64,000 nucleotides of DNA from a virus: IMG/VR virus record IMGVR_UViG_3300044769_000080; one strand, written 5' to 3'. Of this stretch, positions 12,018 to 64,000 are shown in pieces. The notes beneath the pieces are model-generated. The model was not told the origin of the DNA. It did no database searches and saw only the letters and a list, made by a program, of their open reading frames with translations. A program made the position numbers and the translations under genes. Position 1 is the stretch's first letter; every line of letters starts with the position of its first letter.

Positions 12018-12060
12018 CTATAGAGCCCTTTATGAATTACATAGCGGAGAGAGTCTCCTG

Positions 12061-12678: not shown

Positions 12679-12687
12679 TTAATTCCT

Positions 12688-14541: not shown

Positions 14542-14542
14542 A

Positions 14543-45985: not shown

Positions 45986-46843
45986 ATGAAGCTGCCGAAG
46001 TTCGAAGACAAACATCCGAAACACACGGCTGAGGGCTATGCAGCCACGAACGAGGAGCCGGAAGCTCATCGTAAGCTGATCAGCAACAAGCGATTCAAGC
46101 GCGCGGCTTCCATTGCATCTGGTGGAGAGATCCCTTATTGTGTATTGCTCAGCCGGTCGGATGAGGTGGTTGCTGTTGACCACTCATATCGAGCAATCAT
46201 TATGTGTTATCTGAAGGCTGTGTTGCTCAACACGCTCGGCCCGAGGGGAATGAAGGCATTGTTTGTCGAATCAAGCTATGAAGACGTGAAGGCTGTGTTG
46301 CTGGAAGCGGCAAAGTTGATGCCTCAGGTGTTACAGGACAAAGTGAATTGGGCTGATAAACAGCCTTACTACGATTACTATTCGGAATCAGCAAACCGAC
46401 GGTACTCGGTACTTTCGATCAGTGACATCAAGTATCTTCGTCGAGAAGCCTTCTTCACTCCACTGGCCACCCTCGAAGCAGTTGTGAAGCGACTGGATCA
46501 GGTCACCCTCGTGCACGGCGACCTGAGTGACCTCAAGCTATACGGTGGAAACTTCGATATTTTGTATGCCTCAAACGCGATGGGACATACCAATCGAGAC
46601 AAGAAATATCCGACCTTTAGCCAGTTCGAGGAACTCGTCAAACCTGACGGATATATCTTGATGACAACAGGCTATGGCACCAAAACAGATCCCAAGCTTC
46701 CAACCACCCTGAAGGAAATCAAGCGCATTAGTGGTCTGAGGTCTGATTGGGACCATGTTCTGTTGCAGAAAGCGGTAAAGAATGAGCCTGCCAAAGAAAC
46801 AACCCAAGCCGAAGCCCAAGTTTCCTCGAGTCCCAGTGCCTAA
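45986..46843 (+). CDS. hypothetical protein (285 aa), possible methyltransferase-like fold
   Basis: ORF track. No clear catalytic motif. Confidence 0.35.
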   Translation: MKLPKFEDKHPKHTAEGYAATNEEPEAHRKLISNKRFKRAASIASGGEIPYCVLLSRSDEVVAVDHSYRAIIMCYLKAVLLNTLGPRGMKALFVESSYEDVKAVLLEAAKLMPQVLQDKVNWADKQPYYDYYSESANRRYSVLSISDIKYLRREAFFTPLATLEAVVKRLDQVTLVHGDLSDLKLYGGNFDILYASNAMGHTNRDKKYPTFSQFEELVKPDGYILMTTGYGTKTDPKLPTTLKEIKRISGLRSDWDHVLLQKAVKNEPAKETTQAEAQVSSSPSA

Positions 46844-48109: not shown

Positions 48110-49159
48110 ATGACAAAAACACGTTACGTTGATGATGTGAAAGTGCAGGCTCCGATTGATCAGGCCCTCATCAACCATGTTGCCCTCGTCGTTGACGGGT
48201 CAGGTAGCATGGCGGGCCTCGAAACCACGGTTGTGCGAGTCGTGGATGAGCTGATGGCAACCCTCGCGAGCAAGTCTCGTGAAACCGATCAGGAAACTCG
48301 TGTCAGTCTGTATGTGTTCGAGAACACCCTGTCAATCAAATGTCTCACATATGACAAGGATGTCCTCCGCATGCCATCGATGAAAGGCCTGTATCGAGCT
48401 GTCGGTAACACGCCCCTCATCGATGCTACGCTCAAGTCGATTGATGATTTGAAACAGTCAGCCACGCTGTATGGTGATCATGCGTTCCTCATCTATGTCC
48501 TGACGGATGGCGCTGAGAATGCGTCGAAGCATGCGCCTGATTCGCTTCGCAAGACAATCCAACAGTTGGACGAGAACTGGACCCTCGCGTGCTTCGTTCC
48601 TGACCGGACTAGTAAGAACGCAGCTGAGAGATTCGGTTTCCCTGCTGATAACGTGCAGCTATGGGAAGTGACCGAGGGTGGCTTGAAAGATGCTGCTCGG
48701 ACGATTACCAATAGCGTTTCCAGCTATTACACGATGCGCTCTAGCGGCGTGCGTGGTAGCAAGAACCTGTTTTCGATGGACCTCAGTAAACTGTCGAAGT
48801 CAACAATAGCAAAGAAACTGACGCCGCTCACGTTCGGCCAGTATCGCATGTTCGACGTGAAAGACAAGACACCGATTGCACATTTCGTGGAGGTGCAGCT
48901 ACGTCGGCCGTATAAGCTGGGTGAGGCTTACTACCAGCTAACCGAGCCGGTCAAGGTCCAGCCACAGAAACAAGTGTGTATCTGGGACCGTAAGAAGCAT
49001 GTCCTCTACGCCGGTAACGAAGCACGTCAGTTGCTTGGTCTGCCGAGCTACGAGGTCAAGCTGGAGCCTGCGGCTACGCCTGACTTCGATATCTTTATCC
49101 AGAGCACGAGCGTAAACCGAAACCTCTTGCCGGGACAGAAGGTTGTGGTGCTATCATGA
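48110..49159 (+). CDS. von Willebrand factor A (vWA) domain protein (349 aa)
   Basis: MIDAS motif VALVVDGSGSMAG (DxSxS) near N-terminus, later T and D positions. Stop overlaps the start of the NAMPT-family gene. Confidence 0.55.
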   Translation: MTKTRYVDDVKVQAPIDQALINHVALVVDGSGSMAGLETTVVRVVDELMATLASKSRETDQETRVSLYVFENTLSIKCLTYDKDVLRMPSMKGLYRAVGNTPLIDATLKSIDDLKQSATLYGDHAFLIYVLTDGAENASKHAPDSLRKTIQQLDENWTLACFVPDRTSKNAAERFGFPADNVQLWEVTEGGLKDAARTITNSVSSYYTMRSSGVRGSKNLFSMDLSKLSKSTIAKKLTPLTFGQYRMFDVKDKTPIAHFVEVQLRRPYKLGEAYYQLTEPVKVQPQKQVCIWDRKKHVLYAGNEARQLLGLPSYEVKLEPAATPDFDIFIQSTSVNRNLLPGQKVVVLS

Positions 49160-50649
49160 ACCTGCTCCCACCTCTGCGGAAAGATCAATACTATGTCAAG
49201 GTGCTGACAATGCAGTTGTTACCTCCCCTGAGGGCCGACGGATATAAGTGCGACCACCGTTCACAGTACCCCAAGGGCACGACCCTCGTGTACTCGAACG
49301 CCACCTGTCGTGGCAGCCGCCTCGCTGGTGTCGATCAGGCAGTTGTCTTCGGCCCTCAATATTGGGTCATCGAGCATCTGTCCCGAAGATGGTTTGCTGA
49401 TTTCTTCAACAAGCCCCTCGACCGGGTGATGCGGACCTACAAGCGTAGGATTGATAACTACCTCGGCCCTGGCGCGATTACGTATGACCACATCGAGGCG
49501 CTCCACAAGCTGGGCTACTTGCCACTATGCGTGAAGGCGCTGCCCGAGGGAACCCTCGTGCCGATGCGTGTACCCTATCTGACTATCAGAAACACGCATC
49601 CAGACTTCTTCTGGCTGACTAACATGCTCGAAACCAACCTCAGCAACGTGGTGTGGGGAATGGTGAACAGCGCAACGATTGCGTTCACGTATCGCAGGCA
49701 GTTTGAAGCCTTCGCCCGCATAACCGGATTTCCTCGTGAGATGATCAAGTGGATGGGACATGATTTCAGCTACCGGGGCATGTTTGGTGAGGACGCTGCC
49801 ATCATGTCTGGCATGGCTCATTTGCTGTCATTCACCGGAACCGACACCATCCCTGCTATCGACGGGCTGGAGGAGTATTATGGAGCAAATTCTGACACCG
49901 AACTCGTTGGGGGCTCCGTTCCGGCTACTGAGCACAGTGTTATGTCTATGGGCGGGCAGGAGTCCGAGATTGACACCTACCGGCGACTCATTAGTGAGGT
50001 TTACCCCAAAGGCATCGTGTCCGTTGTCTCAGATACATGGGATTACTTCAACGTGCTCGATACTATCCTTCCGGCGCTCAGAGAAGTTATTCTGGGGCGA
50101 GATGGAAAGGTAGTCATCCGGCCCGATAGCGGTGACCCGGTTGAGGTTATCTGCCAGAGCATGGAGAAGTTGTGGGCCACCTTTGGCGGGACGGTCAACG
50201 AGAAGGGTTATAAGGAGCTTGATCCTCACATCGGTCTGATCTATGGTGATAGCATCACGCTTGAGAGGCAGGGGAAGATTCTCAGCAGGCTTGAGGAGAT
50301 GGGCTTTGCGAGCTTGCCTGTGCTGGGGATTGGGAGCTTCACGTATCAGTACAACACAAGAGACACCTTGGGGCAGGCAATTAAGGCTACGTATGGAGAG
50401 GTCAACGGTGAGAGGCGTGAAATCTTCAAGCAGCCCAAGACTGATGACGGGACGAAGAACAGCGCGAGGGGCTTACTTGCGGTTCATCGGGCTGATGGCG
50501 ATCTTCCAGGTGGTAGGCTGTATCTCAAGGAGTCATGTAGCTGGAAGGAGGAAGCTGGCGGTGAGCTGCTGACCGTGTTCATGGACGGTGAGGTTAGAAA
50601 CTTTCAGACACTTGCCCAGATTCGAGCGCGGCTGGAGGCGCAACTCTGA
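49156..50649 (+). CDS. nadV: nicotinamide phosphoribosyltransferase family enzyme (NAMPT/NadV; possibly Namat-type) (497 aa)
   Basis: Long colinear matches to NAMPT: GTDTI, SVPATEHSV, VSVVSDTWDYFNV, VIRPDSGDP, NEKGYKEL, LIYGDSI, GIGSF, KQPKTDDGTKNSARGLLAVHR. Confidence 0.75.
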   Translation: MNLLPPLRKDQYYVKVLTMQLLPPLRADGYKCDHRSQYPKGTTLVYSNATCRGSRLAGVDQAVVFGPQYWVIEHLSRRWFADFFNKPLDRVMRTYKRRIDNYLGPGAITYDHIEALHKLGYLPLCVKALPEGTLVPMRVPYLTIRNTHPDFFWLTNMLETNLSNVVWGMVNSATIAFTYRRQFEAFARITGFPREMIKWMGHDFSYRGMFGEDAAIMSGMAHLLSFTGTDTIPAIDGLEEYYGANSDTELVGGSVPATEHSVMSMGGQESEIDTYRRLISEVYPKGIVSVVSDTWDYFNVLDTILPALREVILGRDGKVVIRPDSGDPVEVICQSMEKLWATFGGTVNEKGYKELDPHIGLIYGDSITLERQGKILSRLEEMGFASLPVLGIGSFTYQYNTRDTLGQAIKATYGEVNGERREIFKQPKTDDGTKNSARGLLAVHRADGDLPGGRLYLKESCSWKEEAGGELLTVFMDGEVRNFQTLAQIRARLEAQL

Positions 50650-51168: not shown

Positions 51169-51858
51169 ATGACAGCTAAGTTCTATCAAGTCGGTGGGTC
51201 GGTGCGGGACGAGTTCCTCGGCCTGCGCTCGAAGGACATCGACTATTCTGTGGAGGCTGAATCCTATGCAGCAATGCGACAAGCCATTCTTGACCGAGGC
51301 GGAGATATCTTCCTTGAAACGCCTAAGTACTTTACCATTCGGGCGAAGGTTCCCGGCCTCGGTGCGTGTGACTACGTGCTTTGTCGGAAAGACGGAGCTT
51401 ACAGTGATGGCCGACGCCCTGAGACAGTCGAGGTCGGGAGCATCTATGATGATCTCGCGAGACGCGATTTCACGATGAACGCCATCGCTCGGGCTGAGGA
51501 CGGCACAATCATTGACCCGTTTGACGGCAGAGCTGATATCGAGCAGCGTCTTATCAGATGTGTTGGAACAGCGAAAGCTCGTTTCACTGAAGACGGCCTC
51601 AGGATGCTGCGAGCCATCAGGTTCTCGGTAACCAAAAACTTCCGTATCGCAGACGACATCGTTACCTGTATCCGGCATGAGGACTTCTTAGGAACTCGAA
51701 TGTGGGGTGTTTCCGATGAGCGCATTCGTGAAGAGCTTCACAAAATGTTCCAGCACGACAGTGATTATTCGTTTAGCTTGCTTGGGACGTTTCCAGAATT
51801 CAGGCATTTTCTACTGCGTGGAAATCTCTGGCTCAAGCCGACATTGGAGGCGCGATGA
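51169..51858 (+). CDS. Pol-beta-like nucleotidyltransferase of the CCA-adding/poly(A) polymerase head-domain type (229 aa)
   Basis: FYQVGGSVRDEFLGLRSKDIDYSV matches the GG.VRD..LG....D.D signature of class II tRNA nucleotidyltransferases. Protein is short (head plus neck only). Confidence 0.55.
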   Translation: MTAKFYQVGGSVRDEFLGLRSKDIDYSVEAESYAAMRQAILDRGGDIFLETPKYFTIRAKVPGLGACDYVLCRKDGAYSDGRRPETVEVGSIYDDLARRDFTMNAIARAEDGTIIDPFDGRADIEQRLIRCVGTAKARFTEDGLRMLRAIRFSVTKNFRIADDIVTCIRHEDFLGTRMWGVSDERIREELHKMFQHDSDYSFSLLGTFPEFRHFLLRGNLWLKPTLEAR

Positions 51859-52025
51859 AAGTTTAACAAAGTCATCATCGTCTGGTGGAACAACCGCAGG
51901 TTTGCTGAGATTCATGAGGCGAGCTACGAGATCATCGCTGGCGAGCTTCTGCGGCTCTAACGAGGATGGACACCGGTATCTGTGTTTCATCGCAACCGGG
52001 CTTTTGAGCTTGGGGAGGAGATGAA

Positions 52026-52424
52026 GTGAAACTTTTCATACCAGAGCTCCAAACTGTCCTCAAGCTTACCAAAGCTTGGACGTTCCCTGTCGAACTGGAG
52101 CACCGTAACTCAACTCTAATTGAGGTGATGAGCGGTCACAAGGCACAGGACTTCTATCCAACTGTCACCTACGACTGGAAGAATCTTAGTAAGCACTCCC
52201 GTCAGATGACTAATCGCATAGAGCATCCTCCCAAGGTCGAGTGGACTGGGTTACAGGGTAGGATGCCTAAGGGGACGCTTCTCACGGTGGACCGAATCTA
52301 TATCCGTGCAGGTAATGCAACGTTCTCGTCAGTCACGTTCAAGACGAAGTTGAACGGCAAGTCTGTACGTTTCTGGGCAAAACTATCATCGGTCAATACA
52401 ATAGAAGCAGAGGTGGTTGAGTGA
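52026..52424 (+). CDS. hypothetical protein (132 aa), GTG start
   Basis: GGGAGGAG RBS before GTG. Confidence 0.4.
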   Translation: MKLFIPELQTVLKLTKAWTFPVELEHRNSTLIEVMSGHKAQDFYPTVTYDWKNLSKHSRQMTNRIEHPPKVEWTGLQGRMPKGTLLTVDRIYIRAGNATFSSVTFKTKLNGKSVRFWAKLSSVNTIEAEVVE

Positions 52425-53260
52425 GAATCTATACACGAGCTGGAGACTTAGCGTTCGAAGAATTCACATTCCCAGACGGGCAGCCTCACTTCAAGTTGCT
52501 CACTTGGACGAGGGAATTCCGCGATGTGACCATTGAGATTGCGATCAAGTCGCCTCTCGACATCTTCCGTGTACTGTTGGCTGGGAGGGTGCTTTCGGAC
52601 AACAGCTATCACGTTCACCTCAACATCCGTTACTTGCTCGGTGCGAGGATGGACCGACCAATCGACAAGTGGCAGCCTGACACGCTTGCGCTCGTGCGCC
52701 TTATGCTACAGGCTGACGGGCCATTCCATAGTATCCGAGTGTTGGATGTTCACAACCCATCAGCTACCATCGGAATGATTAATGTCCTCCCATTTAAGGT
52801 GGTGAAGGCTGTCTATGATACGGTTGGCGATCCAATCATCATCGTTCCTGACAAGGGAGCGGTGCAGCGGGTTGAGGCATTGACTGCGGCGCTGCGCGTC
52901 AAGAACCGGATTTACTGTGAGAAAACTCGCGACGTGGCAACCGGGAAGATCACTGGTTTCAAGATCCTCAACGCTTTAGTCGCCAATGACGAGGACTGCC
53001 TCATCATTGACGACATCTGCGACGGTGGTGCAACCTTTACGAGCCTTGCGATGGGCCTGAAGGATATTGGTGCGAAGACAGTTAATCTCTATGTCACGCA
53101 TGGCATCTTCAGCAAGGGATTCAAGGATCTTGTAAATGCTCCTGACATGGGCATGAAAGGCCAGATTGATCGCATCTTTACCACGGATTCGTATCGTGAC
53201 TGGCACGTAGTGCCTCATGTGCCTGTGAGCTGTATCCCGGTGAGAATGGAGAATATGTGA
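52421..53260 (+). CDS. prs: ribose-phosphate pyrophosphokinase (PRPP synthetase) homologue, possibly ADPR-PP synthetase type (279 aa)
   Basis: FPDGQ, IRYLLGARMDR (compare IPYFGYARQDR), RVLDVHNP, IIVPDKGAVQRV, IIDDICDGGATF (PRPP-binding DDxxDTGGT-like), YVTHGIFS. Confidence 0.65.
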   Translation: MRIYTRAGDLAFEEFTFPDGQPHFKLLTWTREFRDVTIEIAIKSPLDIFRVLLAGRVLSDNSYHVHLNIRYLLGARMDRPIDKWQPDTLALVRLMLQADGPFHSIRVLDVHNPSATIGMINVLPFKVVKAVYDTVGDPIIIVPDKGAVQRVEALTAALRVKNRIYCEKTRDVATGKITGFKILNALVANDEDCLIIDDICDGGATFTSLAMGLKDIGAKTVNLYVTHGIFSKGFKDLVNAPDMGMKGQIDRIFTTDSYRDWHVVPHVPVSCIPVRMENM

Positions 53261-53535
53261 TGTTGAGAGCTGCATTTGCTGTCGTCATCTTGGTAGCACT
53301 TCTCGCAGGAGCATGCCTCCCAGCAGGCTGCAATGTCAATGCAGTCTTCGGGCAGCAAGCTGAGGCCCACTACGTGCGGTTTCATCGTTACAGCTATAGC
53401 CAGATTGACAACTTCACGAACATTGATATGGTGAAGGATACGCGGGATGACACCTGTTATGTGGTGTACAACCACTCTAATATGACTTATCCGGTGACGT
53501 ATACATCCGTCCCACTCGGACAAGTCAAGTGCTAA
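53257..53535 (+). CDS. lipoprotein (92 aa)
   Basis: MMLRAAFAVVILVALLAGACLPAGC lipobox. Confidence 0.4.
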   Translation: MMLRAAFAVVILVALLAGACLPAGCNVNAVFGQQAEAHYVRFHRYSYSQIDNFTNIDMVKDTRDDTCYVVYNHSNMTYPVTYTSVPLGQVKC

Positions 53536-53608
53536 TCGACACCATCGGGGCAATGATTTTCATCTCATTCCCAGCCACGCTACTTGCGATCTGGATGAGG
53601 AACGATGA

Positions 53609-53794
53609 GTGGAGGCGAAAGTGATCAACAACCCGCCGCGTGTGTTACTTGGTATTGTGCTTGGCTTTGTGGGAGGTGCACTGATATCAAACTCCCTTGG
53701 CCTTGGCTGGGGCATTGGCAACCTCATCGGTGCCATCATTGGGGCAGTTGGAATGGACTGGATACTAGGAACTGATAATGACAACCAAGCCTGA
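53609..53794 (+). CDS. small Gly-zipper membrane protein (61 aa)
   Basis: LLGIVLGFVGGALISNSLGLGWGIGNLIGAIIGAVG. Confidence 0.35.
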   Translation: MEAKVINNPPRVLLGIVLGFVGGALISNSLGLGWGIGNLIGAIIGAVGMDWILGTDNDNQA

Positions 53795-54818
53795 AGTGCT
53801 CATCCTCTCCGGCTTGCCGGGGTCTGGGAAGAGCACATTTGCCGAGGACTGGCTTGTCCAGAAACAAGGACAAGGCGTCCGTATCAACTACGACAACATC
53901 CGCCTTGAACTGTTCGGCACGGACTGGAATTGGAACCGTACTGACGAGGGCAAGATGAAGGACCACGCTATGGAGACGGCGAACGATGCCCTCAAATGTG
54001 GTTATAGCCTTATCATCGACAACACGAACCTGACGCCTAAGGCGAGGGCACCGTGGGAGAACCTTGCTCGCAGCTATGGGCTGACGCCCGAGAACATGGA
54101 ATTTGATACACCTGTTGCCGAGTGTGTCCGTCGCGACTCTTTGAGGAGCGATCGTAGCCGAGTCGGGCGTGCGGTGATTGAACGGTTCGCGCTGTTCAAT
54201 GGATTCATCGACTGGAACGACCGATCTCTGTATCCGAGGGATTTCATCATCGTTGACATGGACGGAACGGTAGCGGATTGTGATTGGCGACGGAAGCTGG
54301 CGTTTGAGGGACCAACCAAGCACAAGGATGTTAAGATTTTCCTTGAATCCTCGAATGGAGTCACCGTTCCGTGTTCATTGAAGAACAAGGTAGTGGACCG
54401 TGAGTGTCCCGAGTGTGGTGGGAAGGCTCGCAAAAACTGGCCTCTGTTCGCGGCGAACGTGGAGAACGATCCACCGATTCAGCCAATCGTGAGTCTTGTC
54501 CAGACGCTCGAAATGTATGGTGGTGAGGATACTAGCGGAGATTTCTCAGGGCTTGATGTGATCGTGGTGTCTGGCCGTGAGATTGGCCCCTCCGGTAAGG
54601 GAACTGAAGCGTGGTTGGAAAAGATGCCGTGGCACACTCTCCACTTGTTCATGCGTAACTCACAAGACTACCGCCCAGATGACGTGATCAAACAGGAAAT
54701 CCTCGACCTCCTGCCGAAGAATCGCATCCGCTACGTCCTCGACGACCGCCAGCGTGTTGTCGATATGTGGCGCAGAAACGGCTTAACGTGCTTGCAGGTG
54801 GCAGATGGCAAATTCTGA
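53778..54818 (+). CDS. pseT: polynucleotide 5'-kinase/3'-phosphatase (T4 Pnk/PseT-like) with inserted zinc ribbon (346 aa)
   Basis: P-loop LSGLPGSGKST, DNTNL, HAD motif IIVDMDGTVAD, VVSGREIG. C-terminus DDRQRVVDMWRRNGLTCLQVADGKF nearly identical in pattern to the T4 Pnk C-terminus. CPECGG insert. Confidence 0.8.
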   Translation: MTTKPEVLILSGLPGSGKSTFAEDWLVQKQGQGVRINYDNIRLELFGTDWNWNRTDEGKMKDHAMETANDALKCGYSLIIDNTNLTPKARAPWENLARSYGLTPENMEFDTPVAECVRRDSLRSDRSRVGRAVIERFALFNGFIDWNDRSLYPRDFIIVDMDGTVADCDWRRKLAFEGPTKHKDVKIFLESSNGVTVPCSLKNKVVDRECPECGGKARKNWPLFAANVENDPPIQPIVSLVQTLEMYGGEDTSGDFSGLDVIVVSGREIGPSGKGTEAWLEKMPWHTLHLFMRNSQDYRPDDVIKQEILDLLPKNRIRYVLDDRQRVVDMWRRNGLTCLQVADGKF

Positions 54819-54993
54819 GTGTCAACCAACCAAAAACATCATGTGCCTCAACTGCTGGAAGGTGGTGGAACAACACTGCGGCTGTTCTCCTCTTCCAGGC
54901 ACTAACACCTGCAAGTGTCCAGAACCAGATCGGTTTGACGCAGAAGCTGCGATTGACGAGCTTCTGGAGGAACTCAAGCATGAGCATATCTAG
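54805..54993 (+). CDS. small Cys-rich protein (62 aa)
   Basis: ORF track. CLNC...CGC...CKC. Confidence 0.3.
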   Translation: MANSECQPTKNIMCLNCWKVVEQHCGCSPLPGTNTCKCPEPDRFDAEAAIDELLEELKHEHI

Positions 54994-55507
54994 CCGCTTC
55001 TCGGAGGAAGTCGAGTCCAAGCTGTACCATCTCGACATCTGTACTCACATCAAGAACGAAGAAGACATTGACATTCTCACTCGTCGTGGCTTCAACGTTA
55101 ACCTTCGCCTGATGAAGACCTCGCCAGTCTATCACGCCATCATAGCTCAGTGCGTGCATTACATCCGCGACTGTGCGACGACCAAGAGGGCTGGCTACTC
55201 CCGGCCGATGGGCTTCAGCGGCGCTAATGCTGGCATCCCGTTCAACATCATTGCGATGCGGGATGGGACGTATATGATCAATCCTCAAGTGATCGAAGCT
55301 AGCGACAAGATGAGGATTACGAGCAGTGACTGTGGCAGCTTGACGCTGAAGAAGCCAATCAACGTGCAGCGTCCGACTTATGTCACCATCGAATACTACG
55401 ACCTCGATGGGAAGCCGCATGTTGTTAGTGGTTTCTTGCCGACTGAGCAGCACGAAATCGACCACAACAATGGGATTCTGATTACTGACCCGCGCAGGAG
55501 GGCCTGA
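54980..55507 (+). CDS. def: peptide deformylase (175 aa)
   Basis: GFSGANAGIP (G.G.AA.Q-like), SDCGSL (EGCLS-like), EQHEIDHNNG (HE.DH metal motif). In frame with ORF-track entry 54767. Confidence 0.65.
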   Translation: MSISSRFSEEVESKLYHLDICTHIKNEEDIDILTRRGFNVNLRLMKTSPVYHAIIAQCVHYIRDCATTKRAGYSRPMGFSGANAGIPFNIIAMRDGTYMINPQVIEASDKMRITSSDCGSLTLKKPINVQRPTYVTIEYYDLDGKPHVVSGFLPTEQHEIDHNNGILITDPRRRA

Positions 55508-55668
55508 TGACTTGGAAAGAATTCAAAGCATGGATGGAAAAGCAGGGTGTCACTGATAAGATTCACGTTGAAACTGTAGACATCAGGGGTTATGACTTTG
55601 ACGAAAAGCATCCTCCAAATGTCCACTGGGGCCGTGATGGCCGTAAACGAACTGTGAGTGTCTGGTAA
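55507..55668 (+). CDS. small protein (53 aa), not in ORF track
   Basis: TGATG overlap with def. Translation MTWKEFKAWMEKQGVTDKIHVETVDIRGYDFDEKHPPNVHWGRDGRKRTVSVW. Confidence 0.35.
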   Translation: MTWKEFKAWMEKQGVTDKIHVETVDIRGYDFDEKHPPNVHWGRDGRKRTVSVW

Positions 55669-55679
55669 AGGAGAGTCTA

Positions 55680-55958
55680 GTGTCATTCAAGCTCCAACCA
55701 ACATCAGATACGCTCTGTCTAAGCTGCCGCTTCGCAAACATTGCTGAGTTTTCAAACGGTGACCGTATGATTGGCTGTTTGAAATTCGGGAATTTTGAGC
55801 TGTCGAAAATCATACCGTATCCTGTCATCAAGTGTAATGTGTTTGAGAACAAGAACTCAGCGACTGAGTGGGAAATGCGACAAATCGCATGGGACGTCAA
55901 AGTTTCCTCCAAAGGTGGGTTCATTGGGTTCGAAGCGCCACCGAAGGAGGACAGGTGA
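55680..55958 (+). CDS. hypothetical protein (92 aa)
   Basis: ORF track. Confidence 0.35.
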   Translation: MSFKLQPTSDTLCLSCRFANIAEFSNGDRMIGCLKFGNFELSKIIPYPVIKCNVFENKNSATEWEMRQIAWDVKVSSKGGFIGFEAPPKEDR

Positions 55959-56186
55959 GGGATGCTCATGTTGCCGATACTGAGGTCAGTGCAGCGATTC
56001 GTGGTTGTCTTGTTCCATTCGGAGACATGGCGATTACTGACTTGCCGAGGAAGCGATTCAGTTGGCCCAAAGTCTACGCCTACACCGACCACGTTAGGGC
56101 CGCTGAAGTTCGTTCAGTTGGAAGTCTCAGACTGGACACAAGGCGGGAGGATCAAGACAGCTAAGGGCATAGGTCATCACGAATCG

Positions 56187-56534
56187 ATGCTTGATGCTCT
56201 GAAACATGACCCGTGTGCGTATTGTGGCGGTAAATTTCCTGCCGGTTCCCACAACAACGGGAAGCGAACGTATGCGTCGATTGACCATATCGCTCCTCTG
56301 AACAGGCATCACGTGAAGGCCAAGCAGGGGAGGGACCATTGGTCGAACATGACTGGTTGCTGCTCTACGTGCAACAACAAAAAACAAAATATCAAGTTGA
56401 TTTACTTCCTCTGGTGGAAGCGAGACGGCTTCAAGCGACCACTGGCACACGTTCTCAGACAGCGCAAGGAGCGATATGGTAGCAGGCTTAACAGAATTCA
56501 ACACATCGTGGCATTCCTACCCGTCGGTGCATAA
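56187..56534 (+). CDS. HNH endonuclease (115 aa; C-terminal part of ORF-track entry 55962-56534)
   Basis: CAYCGGKF...SIDHIAPL...HWSNMTGCCSTCNNKK is an HNH motif. The upstream 75 codons of the ORF-track entry look like out-of-frame overlap. Confidence 0.55.
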   Translation: MLDALKHDPCAYCGGKFPAGSHNNGKRTYASIDHIAPLNRHHVKAKQGRDHWSNMTGCCSTCNNKKQNIKLIYFLWWKRDGFKRPLAHVLRQRKERYGSRLNRIQHIVAFLPVGA

Positions 56535-57495
56535 TCTAGGGCATCCCGCCATCTCCCAGCTTCTCACCGTTCCAGTCCAAGTCGAGGAAAAAATCGACGG
56601 GAGCCAGTTCAGCTTCGGGCTGTTTCCTGACACTGATACGCCTGTCGTGCGGATGGATGGCGGGGTCGGGTATGGCCTGAAGATTCGGTCGCGTGGTGCT
56701 GTGATGCACCCTGACGCTCCGGTGGATATGTTCAAGCGTCCCACCGAGACGGTCAAGTCACTGATTCCCATGCTGAAACTGGGTTGGACGTATCGGGGTG
56801 AGGTGCTTGTCAAGAAACAACACAACGCCCTCGCCTATGACCGCACCCCTGAAGGCTATATCATCATCTGGGACATCAACCCTGGATATGAGGAATACCT
56901 TGATTATCAAGCTAAAGCAGCGGAAGCCGCTAGACTCGGCCTTGAGTGCGTTCCATTACTATATACAGGTATGGTGGCTGGCATTGAGCAATTCCGAACG
57001 TTCCTCGATACGACAAGCTGTCTCGGAGGGCAAAAGATTGAAGGGGTTGTCGTCAAGCCTCTTGGATATAGCTTGTTTGGCACAGACAAAAAAGTCCTCA
57101 TCGGGAAGTTCGTCTCGGAAGCGTTCAAAGAAGTCCACCGCAAAACCTGGGGCGAAAGCAACCCAGCGGGCAAGGACATCCTCGCGCTGATCGGGGCAAA
57201 GTACACGACTGCTGCGAGGTGGCAGAAAGCGCTTGCTCATTTAAGGGAAACAGGAAAGATCGAGGACAGTCCACGAGATATTGGTTTGTTAATCAATGAG
57301 GTACCAGTTGATGTGCTCAGTGATTCTCAAGACGAAATAAAGGAGGCTCTATTCAAATGGGCTTGGCCTCACATTAAAAGACAAGTCACTCGTGGGTTGG
57401 CTGAATGGTACAAAGAGAAACTTTTGGAGAAGTCTTTCTCTTCAGTCGAATCTCACGAATCTGTTGACCAAGAACAAGCATCTCCTGATAAGTGA
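56476..57495 (+). CDS. RNA ligase, Rnl2-like (339 aa)
   Basis: Motif I VQVEEKIDGSQFSF (KxDG), motif IV EGVVVKP, motif V LIGKFV. Size and layout like T4 Rnl2. Confidence 0.7.
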   Translation: MVAGLTEFNTSWHSYPSVHNLGHPAISQLLTVPVQVEEKIDGSQFSFGLFPDTDTPVVRMDGGVGYGLKIRSRGAVMHPDAPVDMFKRPTETVKSLIPMLKLGWTYRGEVLVKKQHNALAYDRTPEGYIIIWDINPGYEEYLDYQAKAAEAARLGLECVPLLYTGMVAGIEQFRTFLDTTSCLGGQKIEGVVVKPLGYSLFGTDKKVLIGKFVSEAFKEVHRKTWGESNPAGKDILALIGAKYTTAARWQKALAHLRETGKIEDSPRDIGLLINEVPVDVLSDSQDEIKEALFKWAWPHIKRQVTRGLAEWYKEKLLEKSFSSVESHESVDQEQASPDK

Positions 57496-57898
57496 AGAAA
57501 TCGCTCTTTGCTGTGTTGCACACCCAACAGCACTGGACAACGTTGTCAATCTCGTAGCCTATTGACGAGTCAATTCTGTCAAGCCCTACTCCTGAAATAT
57601 TCAGAGGGAAGCCACAATAGTGGCAAGGCTGTTCAATCAATTTAACATAGGTATCTCTGTCTATGTTTGTACCTTTTCTTTTCATGATGGTATATCGGCC
57701 ATCTGGCGTTTGGCCGTACCCACGTCTACGTAGTTTATTGCAAAGCTTGCATTCGCTCTGGAGTCCATCACTTGAGGACGAAGATTTCCAGAAATCGGAT
57801 ACTGGCTTAGAAAGATCACACGAACAGCAGAATTTGGTGGAAGTTGACATACTTCCATTTAACCACAATTCATCTGAATTGTCAAGTTCCTTTATCAA
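57386..57898 (-). CDS. HNH homing endonuclease (170 aa) on opposite strand, AT-rich cassette
   Basis: CHYCGF...LDRIDSSIGYEIDNVVQCCWVCNTAKSD. Low-GC segment. Converges on, and overlaps, the 3' end of the RNA ligase gene by about 110 nt. Confidence 0.6.
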   Translation of the reverse strand: MIKELDNSDELWLNGSMSTSTKFCCSCDLSKPVSDFWKSSSSSDGLQSECKLCNKLRRRGYGQTPDGRYTIMKRKGTNIDRDTYVKLIEQPCHYCGFPLNISGVGLDRIDSSIGYEIDNVVQCCWVCNTAKSDFFTYQEMLVLGQQIREIRLKRKTSPKVSLCTIQPTHE

Positions 57899-57922
57899 AG
57901 ATCGCGACCCAGGAGATGAGGC

Positions 57923-58255
57923 ATGAGAAAAATTCTATACTCTCCCGGTTATGGTGCTGGATGGAGCACATGGAACAGTGGTGAAGTAGCGCGTTTCATG
58001 CTAGTCTATCAGCCAATCATTGATTTCATCGAAGGTGGTAATTCGTTTACCAACGATGACACTGACGAAAAAACAATTCATCCTTTACTTAAACAGCTTC
58101 AGGATGAATGCCGGGAGAAGTTTGGCAAGGAGTATGTATGCATGCTGGGTGCTGATGACCTAGAAATCTTCACAACTAACAAGCGTGTTCGTATTAGTGA
58201 ATACGACGGCTTTGAGTCGATAGAAGAAGAAGGCGAGTTTGAGGAGTGGCTATGA
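57923..58255 (+). CDS. hypothetical acidic protein (110 aa)
   Basis: ORF track. Confidence 0.4.
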   Translation: MRKILYSPGYGAGWSTWNSGEVARFMLVYQPIIDFIEGGNSFTNDDTDEKTIHPLLKQLQDECREKFGKEYVCMLGADDLEIFTTNKRVRISEYDGFESIEEEGEFEEWL

Positions 58256-58953
58256 AAGAAATAATCGTCCCCGACATTCACGAACAGTTTGAGAAGCTAA
58301 ATAAGCTTGAGTCCCGACTGCTTCAGGCCGACCGGGTAATCTTCCTCGGTGACTGGTTTGATAGTTTCAACGAGCCTCAGCACATCCAGACTGCTTGGTG
58401 GCTGAAGAAGCACATCGACATCAAGGGCTGGGAATTTCTGCTCGGCAACCATGACTGTCATTATGCGTTCAGCAACGCTGGTTTTATCTGTTCCGGCTAT
58501 AGCCCAAAGAAAAAGGAAGACATCGCAAACATCCTGACCATCGAGGACTGGGCGAAGTTCAAGGTTTTCGCCTACACGCATGACAAGGAGTTTCTCCTCA
58601 GCCACGCTGGCCTGCGGCCTGAGACTGCCCACTTCCTGAACGAAGAGGATGCGGCGCTTCAGATTGCCCAACATGGTGGGTTTGGGAATTTCTGGTCAGC
58701 TGGCGTAGCCAGAGGCGGTTATGCTAAGTTCGGTGGCCCAACATGGCTGGATTTCAATCGAGAGTTTCGGCCCATTGACGCACAGAGGCAGATCGTCGGA
58801 CACACGTCAGCGAGCGCTGAAATACGTAGAGTCCGTGGCGCAGGGAAGAACGGCAGCACCGGCAACAATTACTGCATCGATACTGGCTTTCGACACGCAG
58901 CTTTCTACGAGGACGGCACGTTGGAATTCTTGAAACTGGAGGACTTGAAGTGA
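58246..58953 (+). CDS. calcineurin-like metallophosphoesterase / Ser-Thr protein phosphatase (235 aa)
   Basis: FLGDWFD (GDxxD), LLGNHDC (GNH[DE]), later H residues. Lambda-PPase-like. Confidence 0.65.
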   Translation: MAMKEIIVPDIHEQFEKLNKLESRLLQADRVIFLGDWFDSFNEPQHIQTAWWLKKHIDIKGWEFLLGNHDCHYAFSNAGFICSGYSPKKKEDIANILTIEDWAKFKVFAYTHDKEFLLSHAGLRPETAHFLNEEDAALQIAQHGGFGNFWSAGVARGGYAKFGGPTWLDFNREFRPIDAQRQIVGHTSASAEIRRVRGAGKNGSTGNNYCIDTGFRHAAFYEDGTLEFLKLEDLK

Positions 58954-59829: not shown

Positions 59830-60189
59830 ATGAGTGATAAGAAATATTTTGGTGGATTCAATAACCTTGAGGACATTGCACGAGAGTTTGCTGATGAACC
59901 TTACAATAGGAAGCGCAAAATCCCAGAAAACCTCCCAACCGAGGAGCAGATTATCTTCGCTGCTTATGAAGGTGGCAGTTATGAAGGTGCAGCCATCGTT
60001 GTGTATGAGAAAGACGGAAAGCTGTATGAGGTCAATGGCAGTCACTGTTCATGCTATGGCCTAGAAGGTCAGTGGGCGCCTGAGGAGACAACTCGGGAAG
60101 CTTTAGCGATGCGTAAGCTTGCGAGCTACGATTACGAAAAGGACACCCGCACCCGATTCCATGAGCTGTTTGGAGGCACAGATGGGTAA
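59830..60189 (+). CDS. hypothetical protein (119 aa)
   Basis: GGAGG RBS then ATG 59830. In frame with ORF-track entry 59809. Confidence 0.4.
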   Translation: MSDKKYFGGFNNLEDIAREFADEPYNRKRKIPENLPTEEQIIFAAYEGGSYEGAAIVVYEKDGKLYEVNGSHCSCYGLEGQWAPEETTREALAMRKLASYDYEKDTRTRFHELFGGTDG

Positions 60190-60586
60190 GTATAGGATTT
60201 TCGTTTACGGTACGTTGCTGCGAGGGTTCGGCAACTACCGTCGGCTGCTGGAGAAGCAAGCAACGTTCATCACTGAGGCTGAGACGCCTCCAACCTATAC
60301 GCTCCTACACCTTGGTGGTTTCCCCGGCCTGATCGCCGAAGGCACCACCGCTGTGAAGGGAGAGGTGTTTGAATTCGATTCTGATGGTGTCCTGCAAGGC
60401 CTTGATTGGCTAGAGGGCCACCCAACGTTCTATACTCGTACTCCGATCAAGCTGGCCGATGGGACGGATGCTGAGACATACATCCTCAACCTGACCGGCA
60501 AGCATTCATATCGAGCTGTTGAAAACGGTAGCTGGCGCACCGAAACTGGAATCAAAGCGCCAGAACAGGAGGTTGTGAATGGGTAA
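60182..60586 (+). CDS. gamma-glutamyl cyclotransferase-like (AIG2/GGCT family) protein (134 aa)
   Basis: N-terminal FVYGTLLRG (YGTL motif), later VKGEVFEF with the conserved Glu. In frame with ORF-track entry 60119. Confidence 0.55.
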   Translation: MGKYRIFVYGTLLRGFGNYRRLLEKQATFITEAETPPTYTLLHLGGFPGLIAEGTTAVKGEVFEFDSDGVLQGLDWLEGHPTFYTRTPIKLADGTDAETYILNLTGKHSYRAVENGSWRTETGIKAPEQEVVNG

Positions 60587-61790
60587 TCTGGTTATCGTCA
60601 ATCCGGGCGTTACAATCGGCGCTGACCCGGAACTATTCCTCGTCAAGCGCGGCAAGACAAAGGAACACGTCATCGGTTCGGAGACGATCATTAAGGAATC
60701 GCTTGAGAACCCATTCAATAAGGGCTATGGCACCGTTGTCACTGATGGTGTTCAGGTTGAGTTGCATCCGAACGGCAATGGCAGCTGTCGTCAGTCAATG
60801 GTTGAATACCTCAAAGCATGTCTCAGTGCTTTGCACACAGAGGTCAGTAAACACCAGGACCTCAGAGTCAGCTTCGATCAAATGGTGACGGTTTCCCGTA
60901 AAGAGCTTATGCAGTTGAGTGATCATGCCAAGTTCCTCGGCTGCAAGCCTAGTCTCAACTTCTATGGCCGTGAGTCAAAGCTGGTTGACGGCTTAGTATA
61001 TCGTAAGCGAAGCGCATCTGGCCATATTCATCTTGGCTCACAGTACATCGCCAATGCTGCTCACCCTGTGGGGGCCGTCAAGGCTGACCGTATCATCCCA
61101 GCCCTCGATATTCTTGTCGGCATCATTGGTGTTCTCCTCGACCGTGACCCGAAAGCTGTTGAACGACGCAAGTTGTATGGTCGTGCTGGTGAGTATCGCC
61201 TCCCAAATCATGGCATCGAGTATCGGACGCTCAGCAACTTCTGGCTGATCAGCTATCCTGTGATGTCCCTCATGATGGCACAGGCGAAGACGGCTTTTTG
61301 CCTGGCGTTTACCGAGACATCGGCAGCAGATCGTTTTAAGTCTAGCTTCCACGACCTGCTCGCCAAGGATGCTTTGAATGAACTCATCAACCTTGCCAAC
61401 CTCAAGCAGGTCGAGAAAGCCATTAACAAGAATGACTTCGACCTCGCATATAGCATCTACGACCGTGCCATCAAACCAGTAATGATGCAGACTAACGGAT
61501 GCATGGGCCTCGGTCCCAACACCGAAGCTGGCGAAGGTGTCTTCAATGATTTTGAGTACTTCATCAGCAAGCCGCTGAAGGAATGGTTTCCGCATGACCC
61601 CATCGAGCATTGGCTGAATGCGAAGGGCCGTGACTATGGCTGGGAAAGCTATGCACAACGTACGATTCGCAGTGCGAGGCTCGGAACACCGACCATAGTT
61701 GATGTTCCAACGCAAGATGTGGCTGTTCCTACCACTGCCCCGCCTCCCAACGGTGGTTCATACGTAACATACACCATCCAAACTAGTTAG
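60579..61790 (+). CDS. glutamine-synthetase-fold carboxylate-amine ligase (GCS2/YbdK-like amidoligase) (403 aa)
   Basis: N-terminal TIGADPELFLV (acidic metal-ligand strand) and SGHIHLGS (G.H.H.G signature) of the GS/GCS2/amidoligase superfamily. Confidence 0.45.
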   Translation: MGNLVIVNPGVTIGADPELFLVKRGKTKEHVIGSETIIKESLENPFNKGYGTVVTDGVQVELHPNGNGSCRQSMVEYLKACLSALHTEVSKHQDLRVSFDQMVTVSRKELMQLSDHAKFLGCKPSLNFYGRESKLVDGLVYRKRSASGHIHLGSQYIANAAHPVGAVKADRIIPALDILVGIIGVLLDRDPKAVERRKLYGRAGEYRLPNHGIEYRTLSNFWLISYPVMSLMMAQAKTAFCLAFTETSAADRFKSSFHDLLAKDALNELINLANLKQVEKAINKNDFDLAYSIYDRAIKPVMMQTNGCMGLGPNTEAGEGVFNDFEYFISKPLKEWFPHDPIEHWLNAKGRDYGWESYAQRTIRSARLGTPTIVDVPTQDVAVPTTAPPPNGGSYVTYTIQTS

Positions 61791-61798
61791 GAGGGATT

Positions 61799-62302
61799 GT
61801 GAACATCGACATCAAGCAAGAGAAAGAAACCGTCATCCATACCTACCTCAAGCGCACCAAACATGGGGTGCGTGTGGATGTGCTGGTCGATCCTGAGGTT
61901 GAGGAATTTTTCCAGCATTGGGGCACTGGAAAGCAGGCAAATGTGACCCTCAATGGCAGGTCATGGAAACCCTATCCTCTCCCAAAGGAAGGTCAAACTG
62001 AAACTGAGTTGCTGGCATGGCAAATCAACGGCCTCAGGGATGACACGACCGGGGCATATGACATCTACAGTACTGGTCGCAGCTTGACAACACCAACAGA
62101 ACGTGGTCAGAACATCTCTTTCATCCGGCTCGTTGGCGCAAGCAAGGGAGTCAGTTTCCTGTACGAGGACGTTGTAGGCTGGGACGGAATGCTTGCGATG
62201 GCTGAGCGCATCCGCAACGCAAGCGGTAGGTTTTATGATCAATTCATCCGTCCCGCTCACCTCCACATCACGGTGAACACGGACATTGAAAGGTTGGAGT
62301 GA
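61799..62302 (+). CDS. hypothetical protein (167 aa) inside the amidoligase cluster
   Basis: ORF track. Confidence 0.4.
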   Translation: MNIDIKQEKETVIHTYLKRTKHGVRVDVLVDPEVEEFFQHWGTGKQANVTLNGRSWKPYPLPKEGQTETELLAWQINGLRDDTTGAYDIYSTGRSLTTPTERGQNISFIRLVGASKGVSFLYEDVVGWDGMLAMAERIRNASGRFYDQFIRPAHLHITVNTDIERLE

Positions 62303-62306
62303 TTGC

Positions 62307-63125
62307 ATGGCGAAGCGAGTAGGCATTAGAAACCGAATCTATCGTGTCGGTGTCGAGCTTGAGGGGGGTTGGGAACAGTTACCGAGTGGGAGCAGGATTG
62401 AGCATGATGGAAGTGTAGTGATCAGTCTACCCGGCGCCATTGATGCCAATGGAAGGCCGCTAAGTCCTCCTCAGGCACCACAGCCTAGGGGCCTTCTCAT
62501 TGATGAGAATGCTGTGCCTCCACGCAAGATGCCAGCGATTGTGGTAGGGGAGATCCCATCACCGCCTCTTGACATGGATGCATATGCAGGCTGGATGAAA
62601 AACTGTTACCCAAAGCACGTCAATGAAACATGTGGCCTCCATACCCATATGAGCTTCAAGTTCAAGATCCATTACATGCGTTTGATGACACCAGAGCTGA
62701 CACCTCATATCGTGAATGGGCTTCTGCGCTGGGCGGAGGAAGAAAAGCTAGCACCAAGTCATCCTATCTGGCCGAGGTTGCAGCGCAAGGACCATCGTCA
62801 CTGTGCTCATATCTATCTAGGTGACAATCAGGTTCGTATAGCACGGAAAGACTACAACAGCCGAGGAACAGCGTATTCTCGATACACCGCTTTGAATTAC
62901 TGTTACTCAAAAGAACAGCCAGACGGCACCAGACTCGGCACTGTTGAGTGTCGTCTGCTGCCTATGATGGAAACATCAGATCAAGCTGTGCGAGCAGTCA
63001 CAACTGTCTTCGACTTGACTAACAGATTCCTCTCCCAGCTGAAGAGAAAAGAGCCTCGGGTGGAAGCGAAAGTTGCGCTTGCTCCAATGCTAAGTGCGAC
63101 ATACAGAACCGGAAGGAGAACGTAA
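62307..63125 (+). CDS. Amidoligase_2-type enzyme (GS-like) (about 272 aa)
   Basis: YRVGVELEGG (G.E.E) and CGLHTHMS (GLH.H) motifs. GGAG RBS before ATG 62307. In frame with ORF-track entry 62286. Confidence 0.5.
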   Translation: MAKRVGIRNRIYRVGVELEGGWEQLPSGSRIEHDGSVVISLPGAIDANGRPLSPPQAPQPRGLLIDENAVPPRKMPAIVVGEIPSPPLDMDAYAGWMKNCYPKHVNETCGLHTHMSFKFKIHYMRLMTPELTPHIVNGLLRWAEEEKLAPSHPIWPRLQRKDHRHCAHIYLGDNQVRIARKDYNSRGTAYSRYTALNYCYSKEQPDGTRLGTVECRLLPMMETSDQAVRAVTTVFDLTNRFLSQLKRKEPRVEAKVALAPMLSATYRTGRRT

Positions 63126-64000
63126 ATGTGTGTGATTTTTGGAGCATTCAAGGGTGAACGTCCTACCGAGGAAATGATTCGCCTTGGCTTTGTCAAAAAC
63201 AATGCTGGAGGTGGGGCGGCGTGGCGTGAGAACGGTAAGGTGCGTTATATGAAAGGGATGACGCTGAGTGAGGTACAAGTCATCAACAAGCACTTGCCTT
63301 TTCCGTATGTGCTACATCTTCGCAATCCATCAACCGGGACAGCGATTGGACCTTTCGCAACCCAGCCGTTTGTGGTAAGTGAGGACGCAGATTTCACCCT
63401 CAAGGGTGAAGCTCCGCAGGGTGTGCTGTTTCACAATGGTTTCTGGTCGGACTGGCGGAATAAGATTCTCGAAGCCGCTATCAATGGAGGTTGGAAGCTG
63501 CCAGATGGTCCGTGGACTGATACGAGAGCCCTTGCAATTATGGCACATCATGTGGGCGGAGGTGCGCTGGAATTCGCTGATGAAAAGCTGATTTGGTTCA
63601 AGGAACATGACATCCGTATCTATGGACCCGTCGGTGGACACCGAGGTTGGGTACAGGTGAACAAGATTCTTTGTTCCAATCGTGATTGGGAGCCAGTTGG
63701 AGGGACAAGATCAATGGGTTTTATCCCAGCCTCGTCCACCCAAGTGAGCATACCGGAGACGAGGCAGCAGGATACTGGGGATGCGGGTTCAACTAAAGAG
63801 ACGGCCGGAGGTGCGTCTCAAAATCGATCCTTTCGTAGTGGCGACGCTTTCGGCACAGCGGGATCGAGGGGAGATAAGCAAGAACGCCTTCAAGCGGGAA
63901 ATGAAAAAACTGTTCGGGAAGGGGTGGCCGAACAACGCGCAGCTCTAGTCCTCTTTCCAGGTGAACACATGTGCGAGGACTGTGACAAGGCTCTTGCACG
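63126..64000 (+). CDS. class II (Ntn) glutamine amidotransferase-like protein, 3'-truncated at window edge (more than 290 aa)
   Basis: Starts MCVIFGAF (Cys2 nucleophile right after Met). Open to the end of the window, so absent from the ORF track. Confidence 0.5.
   Translation, partial: MCVIFGAFKGERPTEEMIRLGFVKNNAGGGAAWRENGKVRYMKGMTLSEVQVINKHLPFPYVLHLRNPSTGTAIGPFATQPFVVSEDADFTLKGEAPQGVLFHNGFWSDWRNKILEAAINGGWKLPDGPWTDTRALAIMAHHVGGGALEFADEKLIWFKEHDIRIYGPVGGHRGWVQVNKILCSNRDWEPVGGTRSMGFIPASSTQVSIPETRQQDTGDAGSTKETAGGASQNRSFRSGDAFGTAGSRGDKQERLQAGNEKTVREGVAEQRAALVLFPGEHMCEDCDKALA

Follow-up and report, generated by a model that had tools for sequence, protein, structure and literature searches.

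What does a phage do with a group of genes that encodes enzymes for making amide bonds next to enzymes for breaking them? This question is raised by the IMG/VR record IMGVR_UViG_3300044769_000080, of which a stretch of 64,000 nt (hereafter the window) was analysed; the genes lie at its 3' end, on the plus strand. An earlier note on this DNA had described them as a five-gene cluster running from 60182 to 64000 that might ligate amides in peptides or metabolites. Our comparisons identify the cluster as a highly divergent form of a phage amide-ligation cassette that is known but experimentally uncharacterised. In our opinion, it is rather probable that these are the first five genes of a cassette of about eight, which, in the cytoplasm of infected cells, would form amide bonds of the glutamate type (gamma-glutamyl or isopeptide) and afterwards trim them.

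The five open reading frames (ORFs) of the earlier note were all present in the plus strand, with operon-like packing from 60182 to the end of the window, and the motifs it had quoted (YGTL, DPELF...GHIHLG, VGVELEGG...GLHTHM and MCVIFG) were all found. The first gene (60182-60586) encodes a 134 aa protein of the gamma-glutamylamine cyclotransferase (GGACT) type and overlaps by 8 nt the gene of a 403 aa COOH-NH2 ligase (60579-61790). After a gap of 8 nt comes the gene of a 167 aa unannotated protein, called U167 here, which starts with GTG (61799-62302), and 4 nt further that of a 272 aa amidoligase-like protein (62307-63125). The TAA stop of the latter abuts the ATG of the fifth gene, which encodes a protein resembling glutamine amidotransferases (GAT) of the N-terminal nucleophile (Ntn) type and is open at the window end (63126 to >64000). 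By these overlaps and short gaps, the genes are translationally coupled. The same five genes were found in the same order in independent metagenomic phage contigs, with protein identities of 35-60%; this recurrence implies that the cluster is conserved and is not a chance arrangement.

The first protein matched Pfam PF06094 (GGACT/AIG2) over its full length with an E-value of 2.6e-23, and phrog_2520 with an E-value of 2.1e-22. It carries the N-terminal YGTL motif and a LDWLEGHP segment bearing the presumed catalytic Glu. Homologues occupy the equivalent position in the related contigs L006, L007, L010, L011 and L013, and the same 134 aa gene was called in a near-identical contig, L032. The AIG2/GGCT-type cyclotransferase of the earlier note is thereby recovered as a predicted gamma-glutamylamine cyclotransferase-like protein of the GGACT/AIG2 fold.

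The 403 aa protein scored 37.8 bits against PF14395 (COOH-NH2_lig, E 1.6e-9), for which the curated cut-off is 25, and matched phrog_3815 (E 2.5e-39). When it was used as a tblastn query, 291 records of phages of Pseudomonas, Escherichia, Vibrio, Proteus and other hosts, annotated as COOH.NH2 ligase, were matched at 27-31% identity, and BLASTP against gp16 of phage NV1 gave an E-value of 1.4e-26. The catalytic core covers approximately residues 10-290 and contains the motif DPELF...GHIHLG; the C-terminal ~110 aa do not occur in the 265-282 aa versions of cultured phages, and the exact sequence of the protein is not on record. These matches assign it to the phiEco32-type COOH-NH2 (carboxylate-amine) ligases, type 2, in the superfamily related to glutamine synthetase (GS) and glutamate-cysteine ligase (GCS). 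The protein had been described as a YbdK/GCS2-like carboxylate-amine ligase. The second half of this description stands, whereas the family is not GCS2/YbdK proper: the cluster proteins gave no Pfam match to GCS2 or glutathione (GSH) synthase and no NCBIfam match, which places them outside the housekeeping GCS2, GshA and GshB families. Profile searches, put forward earlier as a check, recognised these first two proteins, but gave no match for the amidoligase-like and GAT-like proteins of the window.

For the 272 aa protein, no match was obtained in Pfam, PHROGs or NCBIfam, nor by tblastn in 50,697 deposited phage records. As the window protein itself is without a family match, its assignment relies on its homologues and on profile-profile comparison. 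None of its 219 metagenomic homologues has a precomputed Pfam domain; among 68 aligned members, however, 37 weakly matched PF12224 (Amidoligase_2), the sole recurrent family (best E 1.1e-4). When the family profile was compared by hhalign with the amidoligases of phages NV1, Privateer, PaP3 and WD615, a probability of 91% and an E-value of 1e-6 were obtained over the half that contains CGLHxH...RY...ExR. As a control, the same profile was compared with the other proteins of these known cassettes, with a negative result. The invariant motifs are GVELEGG, DGS, GEIPSP, CGLHxH, SRY and ECR, and such residues fit a GS-like carboxylate-amine ligase. A gene for a 272 aa amidoligase, 99% identical, was called in P0001. 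In 20 of 22 IMG/VR loci, the amidoligase gene has the Ntn gene as its direct neighbour, and no relative of the amidoligase family was detected in 185,579 species-representative bacterial and archaeal genomes (GTDB). At the level of remote homology, 62307-63125 is thus predicted to encode a divergent ATP-dependent ligase of the Amidoligase_2 type with a GS-like fold; the earlier note had named this family from the motifs, and routine scans of the window protein miss it.

The same holds for the fifth protein, in which no Pfam, PHROG or NCBIfam match was detected and for which a structural approach was used. The AlphaFold2 (AF2) model of residues 1-195 (63126-63710, plus strand) had a pLDDT of 93 and a pTM of 0.90. 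Comparison of this model with the PDB by Foldseek gave as best match the Ntn hydrolase EgtC (4zfj, E 9e-5, TMq 0.63), followed by the glutaminase domain of GlmS and by PurF. Cys2, R66, N104-G105 and D132 are invariant in the family, and Cys2 becomes the N-terminal nucleophile once Met is removed. The elements MC, HxR..G, HPF, HNG and D were aligned by hhalign with those of phage GATs that Pfam recognises, and distant members of the family gave weak matches to GATase_6 and GATase_4. From their positions in the hhalign and Foldseek matches, we infer the roles of R66, N104-G105 and D132; the full Cys/Arg/Asn-Gly/Asp set points to a ligand that resembles glutamine and whose alpha-amino and alpha-carboxyl groups are free. 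On the strength of the model, the fifth gene can be classed as encoding a class-II (Ntn) GAT-fold protein, as had been supposed.

This gene indeed runs off the window. Its last part, 63711-64000 on the plus strand, encodes a low-complexity linker rich in Gly, Ser, Thr and Gln and the first CxxC of a zinc ribbon (CEDC, residues 283-286). The exact 41-mer at the window end was not found in IMG/VR, but it is present in one 3.4 kb contig of the Joint Genome Institute (JGI), L034, with ~97% identity over the last kilobase. In L034, the full-length fifth gene encodes 384 aa, in which the Ntn domain and the low-complexity linker are followed by two zinc ribbons (CEDC..CWNCW and CQFC..CPVCW), an architecture also found in L006 and L007. 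Its stop overlaps the start of a further gene (MIRLTNEQG...), the product of which resembles at its N-terminus the zinc-ribbon protein of L006.

In L006 (98 kb), L007, L010, L011, L013 and a 91 kb JGI contig, the gene order is GGACT-LIG2-U167-AML-GAT-ZnR-U148-ATP-grasp, where LIG2 and AML are the two ligases, ZnR the zinc-ribbon protein and U148 a protein of ~148 aa. The search past 64000 that the earlier note had recommended therefore yielded the rest of the GAT gene (from L034), a zinc-ribbon gene and, in the distant relatives, the ~148 aa gene and the ATP-grasp gene, whereas the peptidase, Nudix or ubiquitin-like partners that it had envisaged were not found downstream in relatives. The ATP-grasp gene lies three genes past the GAT gene in L006, L007, L010, L011 and L013; its product gave weak matches to RimK (21.0 bits, at the cut-off) and R2K, and a BLASTP E-value of 5e-14 with orf43 of PaP3. 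The window ends inside the GAT gene; judging from the relatives, the phage probably encodes this third ligase, a RimK-like ATP-grasp enzyme, just past 64 kb, and the cassette comprises about eight genes, five of which are visible in the window.

A gene of the Acb5 family (PF26761) was also observed 3' of the ATP-grasp gene, directly after it in L010 (11824-12069) and one or two small genes later in L006 (13829-14065), L007 (13907-14176), L011 (12293-12511) and L013 (11991-12206). The name Acb5 occurs in a preprint of 2025 that deals with viral proteins by which immune signalling nucleotides are sequestered or cleaved. The gene order in the relatives makes it probable that the window phage, too, carries such a gene just past 64 kb.

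The protein encoded between the two ligases, U167, gave no Pfam, PHROG or NCBIfam match. A profile search of 1.84 billion representatives yielded 611 cluster representatives at E<=1e-3 and, among the 150 matches listed, most are proteins of ~140-245 aa that stand alone. Invariant positions are E35 and W56, and nearly invariant ones are R19, G23, G53, G93, N105, S107, R110, G113, S115, G117, F120 and F145; one conserved loop reads NxSFxRLVGxS. No recurrent Pfam family was found among 144 members, no sequence match in the PDB and no fold match, BFVD included; the AF2 model reached a pLDDT of just 61 and was poorest in the most conserved segment. A U167 homologue is located directly 5' of most of the amidoligase-amidotransferase pairs examined. 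With a deep hidden Markov model (HMM) of the family, copies immediately 5' of the amidoligase were detected in L017 (three copies), L019, L022, L025 and L026, which are distant phage contigs without the other ligases; no match was detected in L001, L002, L008 and L009. By these criteria, U167 is a member of a large unannotated family and a conserved partner in the cassette, a point which is new here.

The conserved core is, on this comparative evidence, a three-gene unit consisting of U167, the amidoligase and the Ntn protein. The IMG/VR phage contig L017 (121 kb) has three paralogous units of this kind in tandem, at 7564-15074. The triad occurs twice in the overlapping L022 and L025, which represent one contig, and once each in L019 and L026. 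In L024, a 450 aa protein (7479-8831) combines an amidoligase domain (residues 16-327) with a weak U167-like segment (350-432, E 9e-5), and the next gene encodes an Ntn protein; this is possibly a fusion that links the two families. As a separate observation, the genes bordering the L017 triads encode a metallophosphoesterase, an HD-domain protein, an SMC/SbcC-like ATPase and two glycosyltransferases of family 2.

Two candidate identities of U167 were rejected. One was a divergent version of the middle gene of known cassettes, of the type of PaP3 orf47 and NV1 gp17: hhalign gave a probability of 0.1-0.2% with both shallow and deep profiles, and neither hhalign nor HMM searches revealed any similarity to this or any other protein of the PaP3, NV1, Privateer and WD615 cassettes. 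The other was a Pup-like tag, as U167 ends in RLE and is encoded beside a GS-like ligase. RLE is kept in close relatives only; the C-terminal residue is Glu in 10 of the 144 family members and varies widely in the others, and Pfam scans of the cluster proteins gave no match to a Pup-ligase family of the kind expected for Pup/PafA/Dop-type tagging.

One reading takes the triad by itself as the functional system: a self-contained apparatus for covalent modification, known so far from phages only, used against the host and diversified by tandem duplication. U167 would then be a specificity subunit or a modified carrier, the targets disarmed by amidation or glutamylation could be, for example, an immune signal, a nucleic acid or an immune protein of the host, and the larger cassette would be an elaboration. 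In the window and its relatives, the region of the cassette is rich in candidate counter-defence genes (NAMPT, PRPP-synthetase-like, PNKP, RNA ligase and CCA-adding-type genes, with Acb5 in relatives). We regard this reading as unlikely.

A role of the cluster as auxiliary metabolic genes can be weighed at this step. A phage gamma-glutamyl cycle, made up of GshA-like, GshB-like (ATP-grasp), GGCT and glutaminase activities, would boost the nitrogen, glutamine or glutathione metabolism of the host, and the fold classes of the cassette are the same as those of GshA/GCS2, GshB, GGCT and glutaminase domains; a metabolic boost of this sort was proposed for Phage-ZRK32 and for OM43 phages. However, the proteins are far from the housekeeping enzymes, with no match to GCS2, GSH synthase or GlnA and no NCBIfam equivalog, and the amidoligase, as its family has no relative in the species-representative genomes, is not a captured host gene. 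Furthermore, the core includes the strictly linked, unannotated U167, and the zinc ribbons and disordered linker of the Ntn protein would be unusual in a metabolic enzyme. A metabolic-booster role thus fits poorly, and we consider it highly improbable.

How does the cluster compare with the cassettes of cultured phages? The cassette of phiEco32, PaP3, LUZ24, NV1 and Privateer has the same enzyme set, the ATP-grasp enzyme being seen here in the relatives. In NV1, Privateer and PaP3, a COOH.NH2 ligase, a small ORF, an amidoligase and a GAT follow one another in the order of the window, on one strand and in the early/middle region; NV1 and PaP3 add a RimK-like ATP-grasp gene, and PaP3 a GGCT (orf42), the counterpart of the GGACT gene of the window. 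WD615 has the same parts, with the GAT relocated upstream of the ligase. The GATs of NV1, PaP3, WD615 and Privateer end in CxxC pairs, as in the present cassette. On the other hand, the ligase of the window is just 27-31% identical to that of cultured phages, the amidoligase is shorter (272 aa versus 384-524 aa), as is the GAT (384 aa in the L034 variant versus 450-590 aa), and the small ORF that separates the ligases shows no relationship to the PaP3 orf47/NV1 gp17 family. Two hypothetical proteins of ~300 aa are encoded 5' of the ligase in PaP3, NV1 and Privateer and are absent here, and the GGACT gene stands first in the window but last in PaP3.

The phage amidoligase cassette was reportedly predicted by Iyer et al. 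2009 (Mol Biosyst). A passage of PMC5498523 attributes the term 'putative peptidoglycan modification module' to Hardies et al. 2013. The statement of the earlier note that the system had been noted bioinformatically is borne out by the annotations of NV1, Privateer, PaP3 and WD615, although its 'peptide tagging' is not the usual label, which is 'peptidoglycan modification module'. It had also stated that no product or target is known, and this agrees with the literature: papers up to 2025 still call the module putative or hypothesised, and full-text searches revealed no experiment that identifies a product or a target.

According to the peptidoglycan explanation, the three ligases would build unusual stem-peptide linkages on cytoplasmic murein precursors while the GAT and GGCT proteins recycle wall peptides, with the aim of keeping out superinfecting phages or of making the wall ready for lysis. 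Some bacteria amidate their stem peptides by ligase-amidotransferase pairs, examples being MurT/GatD and the AsnB-type LtsA. Murein stem peptides contain a gamma-glutamyl bond, and all the cassette enzymes, which need ATP, would act in the cytoplasm, where the precursors arise. On the other side, GGACT requires a free alpha-amino group on the glutamyl residue, and in an intact stem peptide L-Ala acylates this group. To our knowledge, Poseidoniales archaea have no murein, and amidoligase-GATase pairs have been reported in viruses assigned to these archaea. No murein-binding, Mur-ligase or membrane domain was found by Pfam among the cluster proteins of the window or its relatives, and the papers found report no experiment. 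The three paralogous triads of L017 suggest several targets and are hard to square with a single wall target. The explanation is stated for RIO-1, phiEco32, LUZ24 and PaP3 in passages of papers that cite Iyer 2009 and Hardies 2013. We hold a murein target to be doubtful.

To relate the preferred reading, in which amide bonds are made and then trimmed, to known chemistry, the enzyme inventory can be set beside characterised pathways. As judged from the family matches, the COOH-NH2_lig type 2 and the Amidoligase_2 relative, both of them ATP-dependent carboxylate-amine ligases in the GS-like superfamily, are combined in the cassette with an Ntn/GAT-II and a GGACT protein, whose characterised relatives have a glutamine or gamma-glutamyl amide as their substrate. 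In butirosin biosynthesis, the ATP-grasp ligase BtrJ adds a gamma-glutamyl group, which protects transiently and which the AIG2/GGACT-fold cyclotransferase BtrG removes as 5-oxoproline. Both folds occur in the cassette, and the likeness is one of fold and logic only; the cassette has neither an acyl carrier protein nor aminoglycoside genes. In mycobacterial ergothioneine synthesis, the GCS-type ligase EgtA installs a gamma-glutamyl group and EgtC, a stand-alone hydrolase of the Ntn/class-II GAT fold, later takes it off. Of the structures matched by the Ntn domain, that of EgtC is the best, yet with ~15% sequence identity; the cassette is without equivalents of EgtB, EgtD and EgtE, and its Ntn protein has the additional linker and zinc-ribbon domain.

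We favour a scheme in which a bond is ligated, its product transformed and the bond then cleaved; one point for it is that this best match is a stand-alone hydrolase of gamma-glutamyl amides. The Pfam description of Amidoligase_2, which lists as neighbours either a GAT-like thiol peptidase or an AIG2 cyclotransferase, also favours ligation followed by cleavage. In this scheme, the amidoligase would join the carboxylate of glutamate (or of another compound) to an amine at the expense of ATP, the COOH-NH2 ligase and the ATP-grasp enzyme would add further residues, and the Ntn protein would hydrolyse the gamma-glutamyl amide in the manner of EgtC. GGACT would release the gamma-glutamyl group as 5-oxoproline, as BtrG does. 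U167 may be an obligatory third subunit that sets specificity, or an enzyme of the step in between. Small amines, proteins, nucleic acids and cell-wall precursors are all candidate acceptors.

Alternatively, the Ntn protein might supply ammonia from glutamine, in which case the trio would be a three-subunit amidotransferase of the GatCAB or PurLQS type. In these enzymes, the synthetase and the glutaminase are encoded together with a small third subunit that is obligatory. The gene pattern of the triad resembles this arrangement, but all three folds differ, and the analogy is limited to the pattern. When set beside the third subunits of GatCAB and PurLQS, the conserved polar residues of U167 suggest that it is more than a scaffold.

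Several points weigh against the ligate-then-cleave scheme. The substrate, product and target cannot be derived from sequence, and the amidoligase and Ntn proteins of the window fall below every curated family threshold. As EgtC, GlmS and PurF match the Ntn domain almost equally, a hydrolase and a glutaminase role cannot be distinguished, and the role of U167, whose structure model is poor, is pure inference. The ATP-grasp gene is not within the window. Finally, it would be futile to make a bond and then hydrolyse it again unless some other step came in between.

Among the enzyme modules of virulent phages for which no product is known, the amidoligase cassette is one of the most widespread. 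It is carried by phages of Pseudomonas, Escherichia, Vibrio and Proteus, by marine OM43 phages and reportedly by archaeal viruses, and has been annotated by prediction alone since 2009. The present case extends the family well past the reach of routine profile libraries. This kind of cassette was already known, and its product is not revealed by the present instance; what is new is that the core in this branch is a triad, together with its unannotated partner family of at least 611 clusters, and that some phages hold several triads in tandem. The triad narrows an experiment to three small co-expressible proteins and weakens an explanation by murein only.

The window is recognised as a phage genome from the predicted products of a major head protein gene (20063-21007) and of a gene for the ATPase of the terminase large subunit (26668-27540, minus strand). 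Megablast and tblastn revealed no close relative among the 50,697 deposited records: searches with the cluster region, the amidoligase and the Ntn domain gave no match there, nor did tblastn with a 617 aa ORF (12688-14541). Across 55-64 kb, promoter- and terminator-like sites were no commoner than in shuffled sequence, which suggests that the cluster belongs to a single long transcription unit running rightward.

Just upstream of the cluster, a complete RNA-repair set was observed within 51169-58953. It consists of a nucleotidyltransferase with the head domain of CCA-adding enzymes and poly(A) polymerases (51169-51858), a polynucleotide kinase-phosphatase (PNKP, 53778-54818), an RNA ligase (56476-57495) and a calcineurin-like metallophosphoesterase (58246-58953). 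Papers on OM43 phages and on Poseidoniales viruses list a metallophosphoesterase alongside the amidoligase and GATase.

The proximity of tRNA-repair genes (PNKP, RNA ligase and the CCA-adding-type nucleotidyltransferase) is one argument for a hypermodification of nucleic acids, in which the amidoligase and the amidotransferase would decorate a base of phage DNA or tRNA with an amino acid or amide and thereby evade nucleases. Zinc ribbons, frequently a nucleic-acid-binding element, occur in the Ntn protein and in the product of the gene after it, and multiple paralogous triads would suit several target bases. Lee et al. (PMC8989533) reported amidoligase and glutaminotransferase Pfam domains beside thymidine-hypermodification genes in viral contigs. 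However, no gene for a 5-hydroxymethyldeoxyuridine (5-hmdU) DNA kinase, an aGPT-pyrophosphorylase, a dUMP hydroxymethylase or a TET/JBP protein was found in the parts scanned, namely the larger ORFs of the window between 33 and 60 kb and, in three relatives, the ~20 kb that surround the cluster. Such chemistry has no obvious use for GGACT or for a gamma-glutamyl-type ligase. As far as we know, LUZ24, PaP3 and phiEco32 are not known for hypermodified DNA. Taken as a whole, we find this explanation very unlikely.

Other genes were noted around the repair set. A NAMPT-type nicotinamide phosphoribosyltransferase is encoded at 49156-50649 (PF04095, E 3e-38) and, a few genes away, a phosphoribosyltransferase resembling phosphoribosyl pyrophosphate (PRPP) synthetase at 52421-53260; the same pair is present in relatives. 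It looks like a phage pathway for NAD+ salvage or reconstitution, of the type that counters NAD-depleting defence systems. A peptide deformylase was matched in 54767-55507 (PF01327, E 3.5e-13), the match being confined to residues 168-242 of the 246 aa ORF, which overlaps the end of the PNKP gene; the true start is probably well inside the ORF, and the version in L006 has 175 aa. An HNH endonuclease ORF (55962-56534; PF01844, E 8.6e-7) lies just 5' of the RNA ligase gene, and a Cys-rich 170 aa ORF with no credible family match (57386-57898, minus strand) is antisense to the 3' end of the latter. In L007, a Ro60/TROVE RNA-binding protein with a vWA domain (422-2056) is encoded upstream of the PNKP and RNA ligase genes.

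The same rightward block of the window encodes a DsbA-like thioredoxin (39737-40402), an SPFH/band-7 protein (43025-44359), a methyltransferase-like protein (45986-46843) and a vWA-domain protein with a weak match (48110-49159). In Privateer, a band-7 protein is likewise encoded near the cassette. The large terminase subunit is apparently split: the 290 aa ORF at 26668-27540 matches the N-terminal ATPase part of the profiles only, and the abutting 212 aa ORF (26030-26668, minus strand), which has no Pfam match, could be the nuclease half. Three tRNA genes were detected, Arg(TCG) and the adjoining Ala(AGC) at 28271-28434 on the minus strand and Lys(TTT) at 44536-44611 on the plus strand; the Ala(AGC) gene is unusually long (87 nt).

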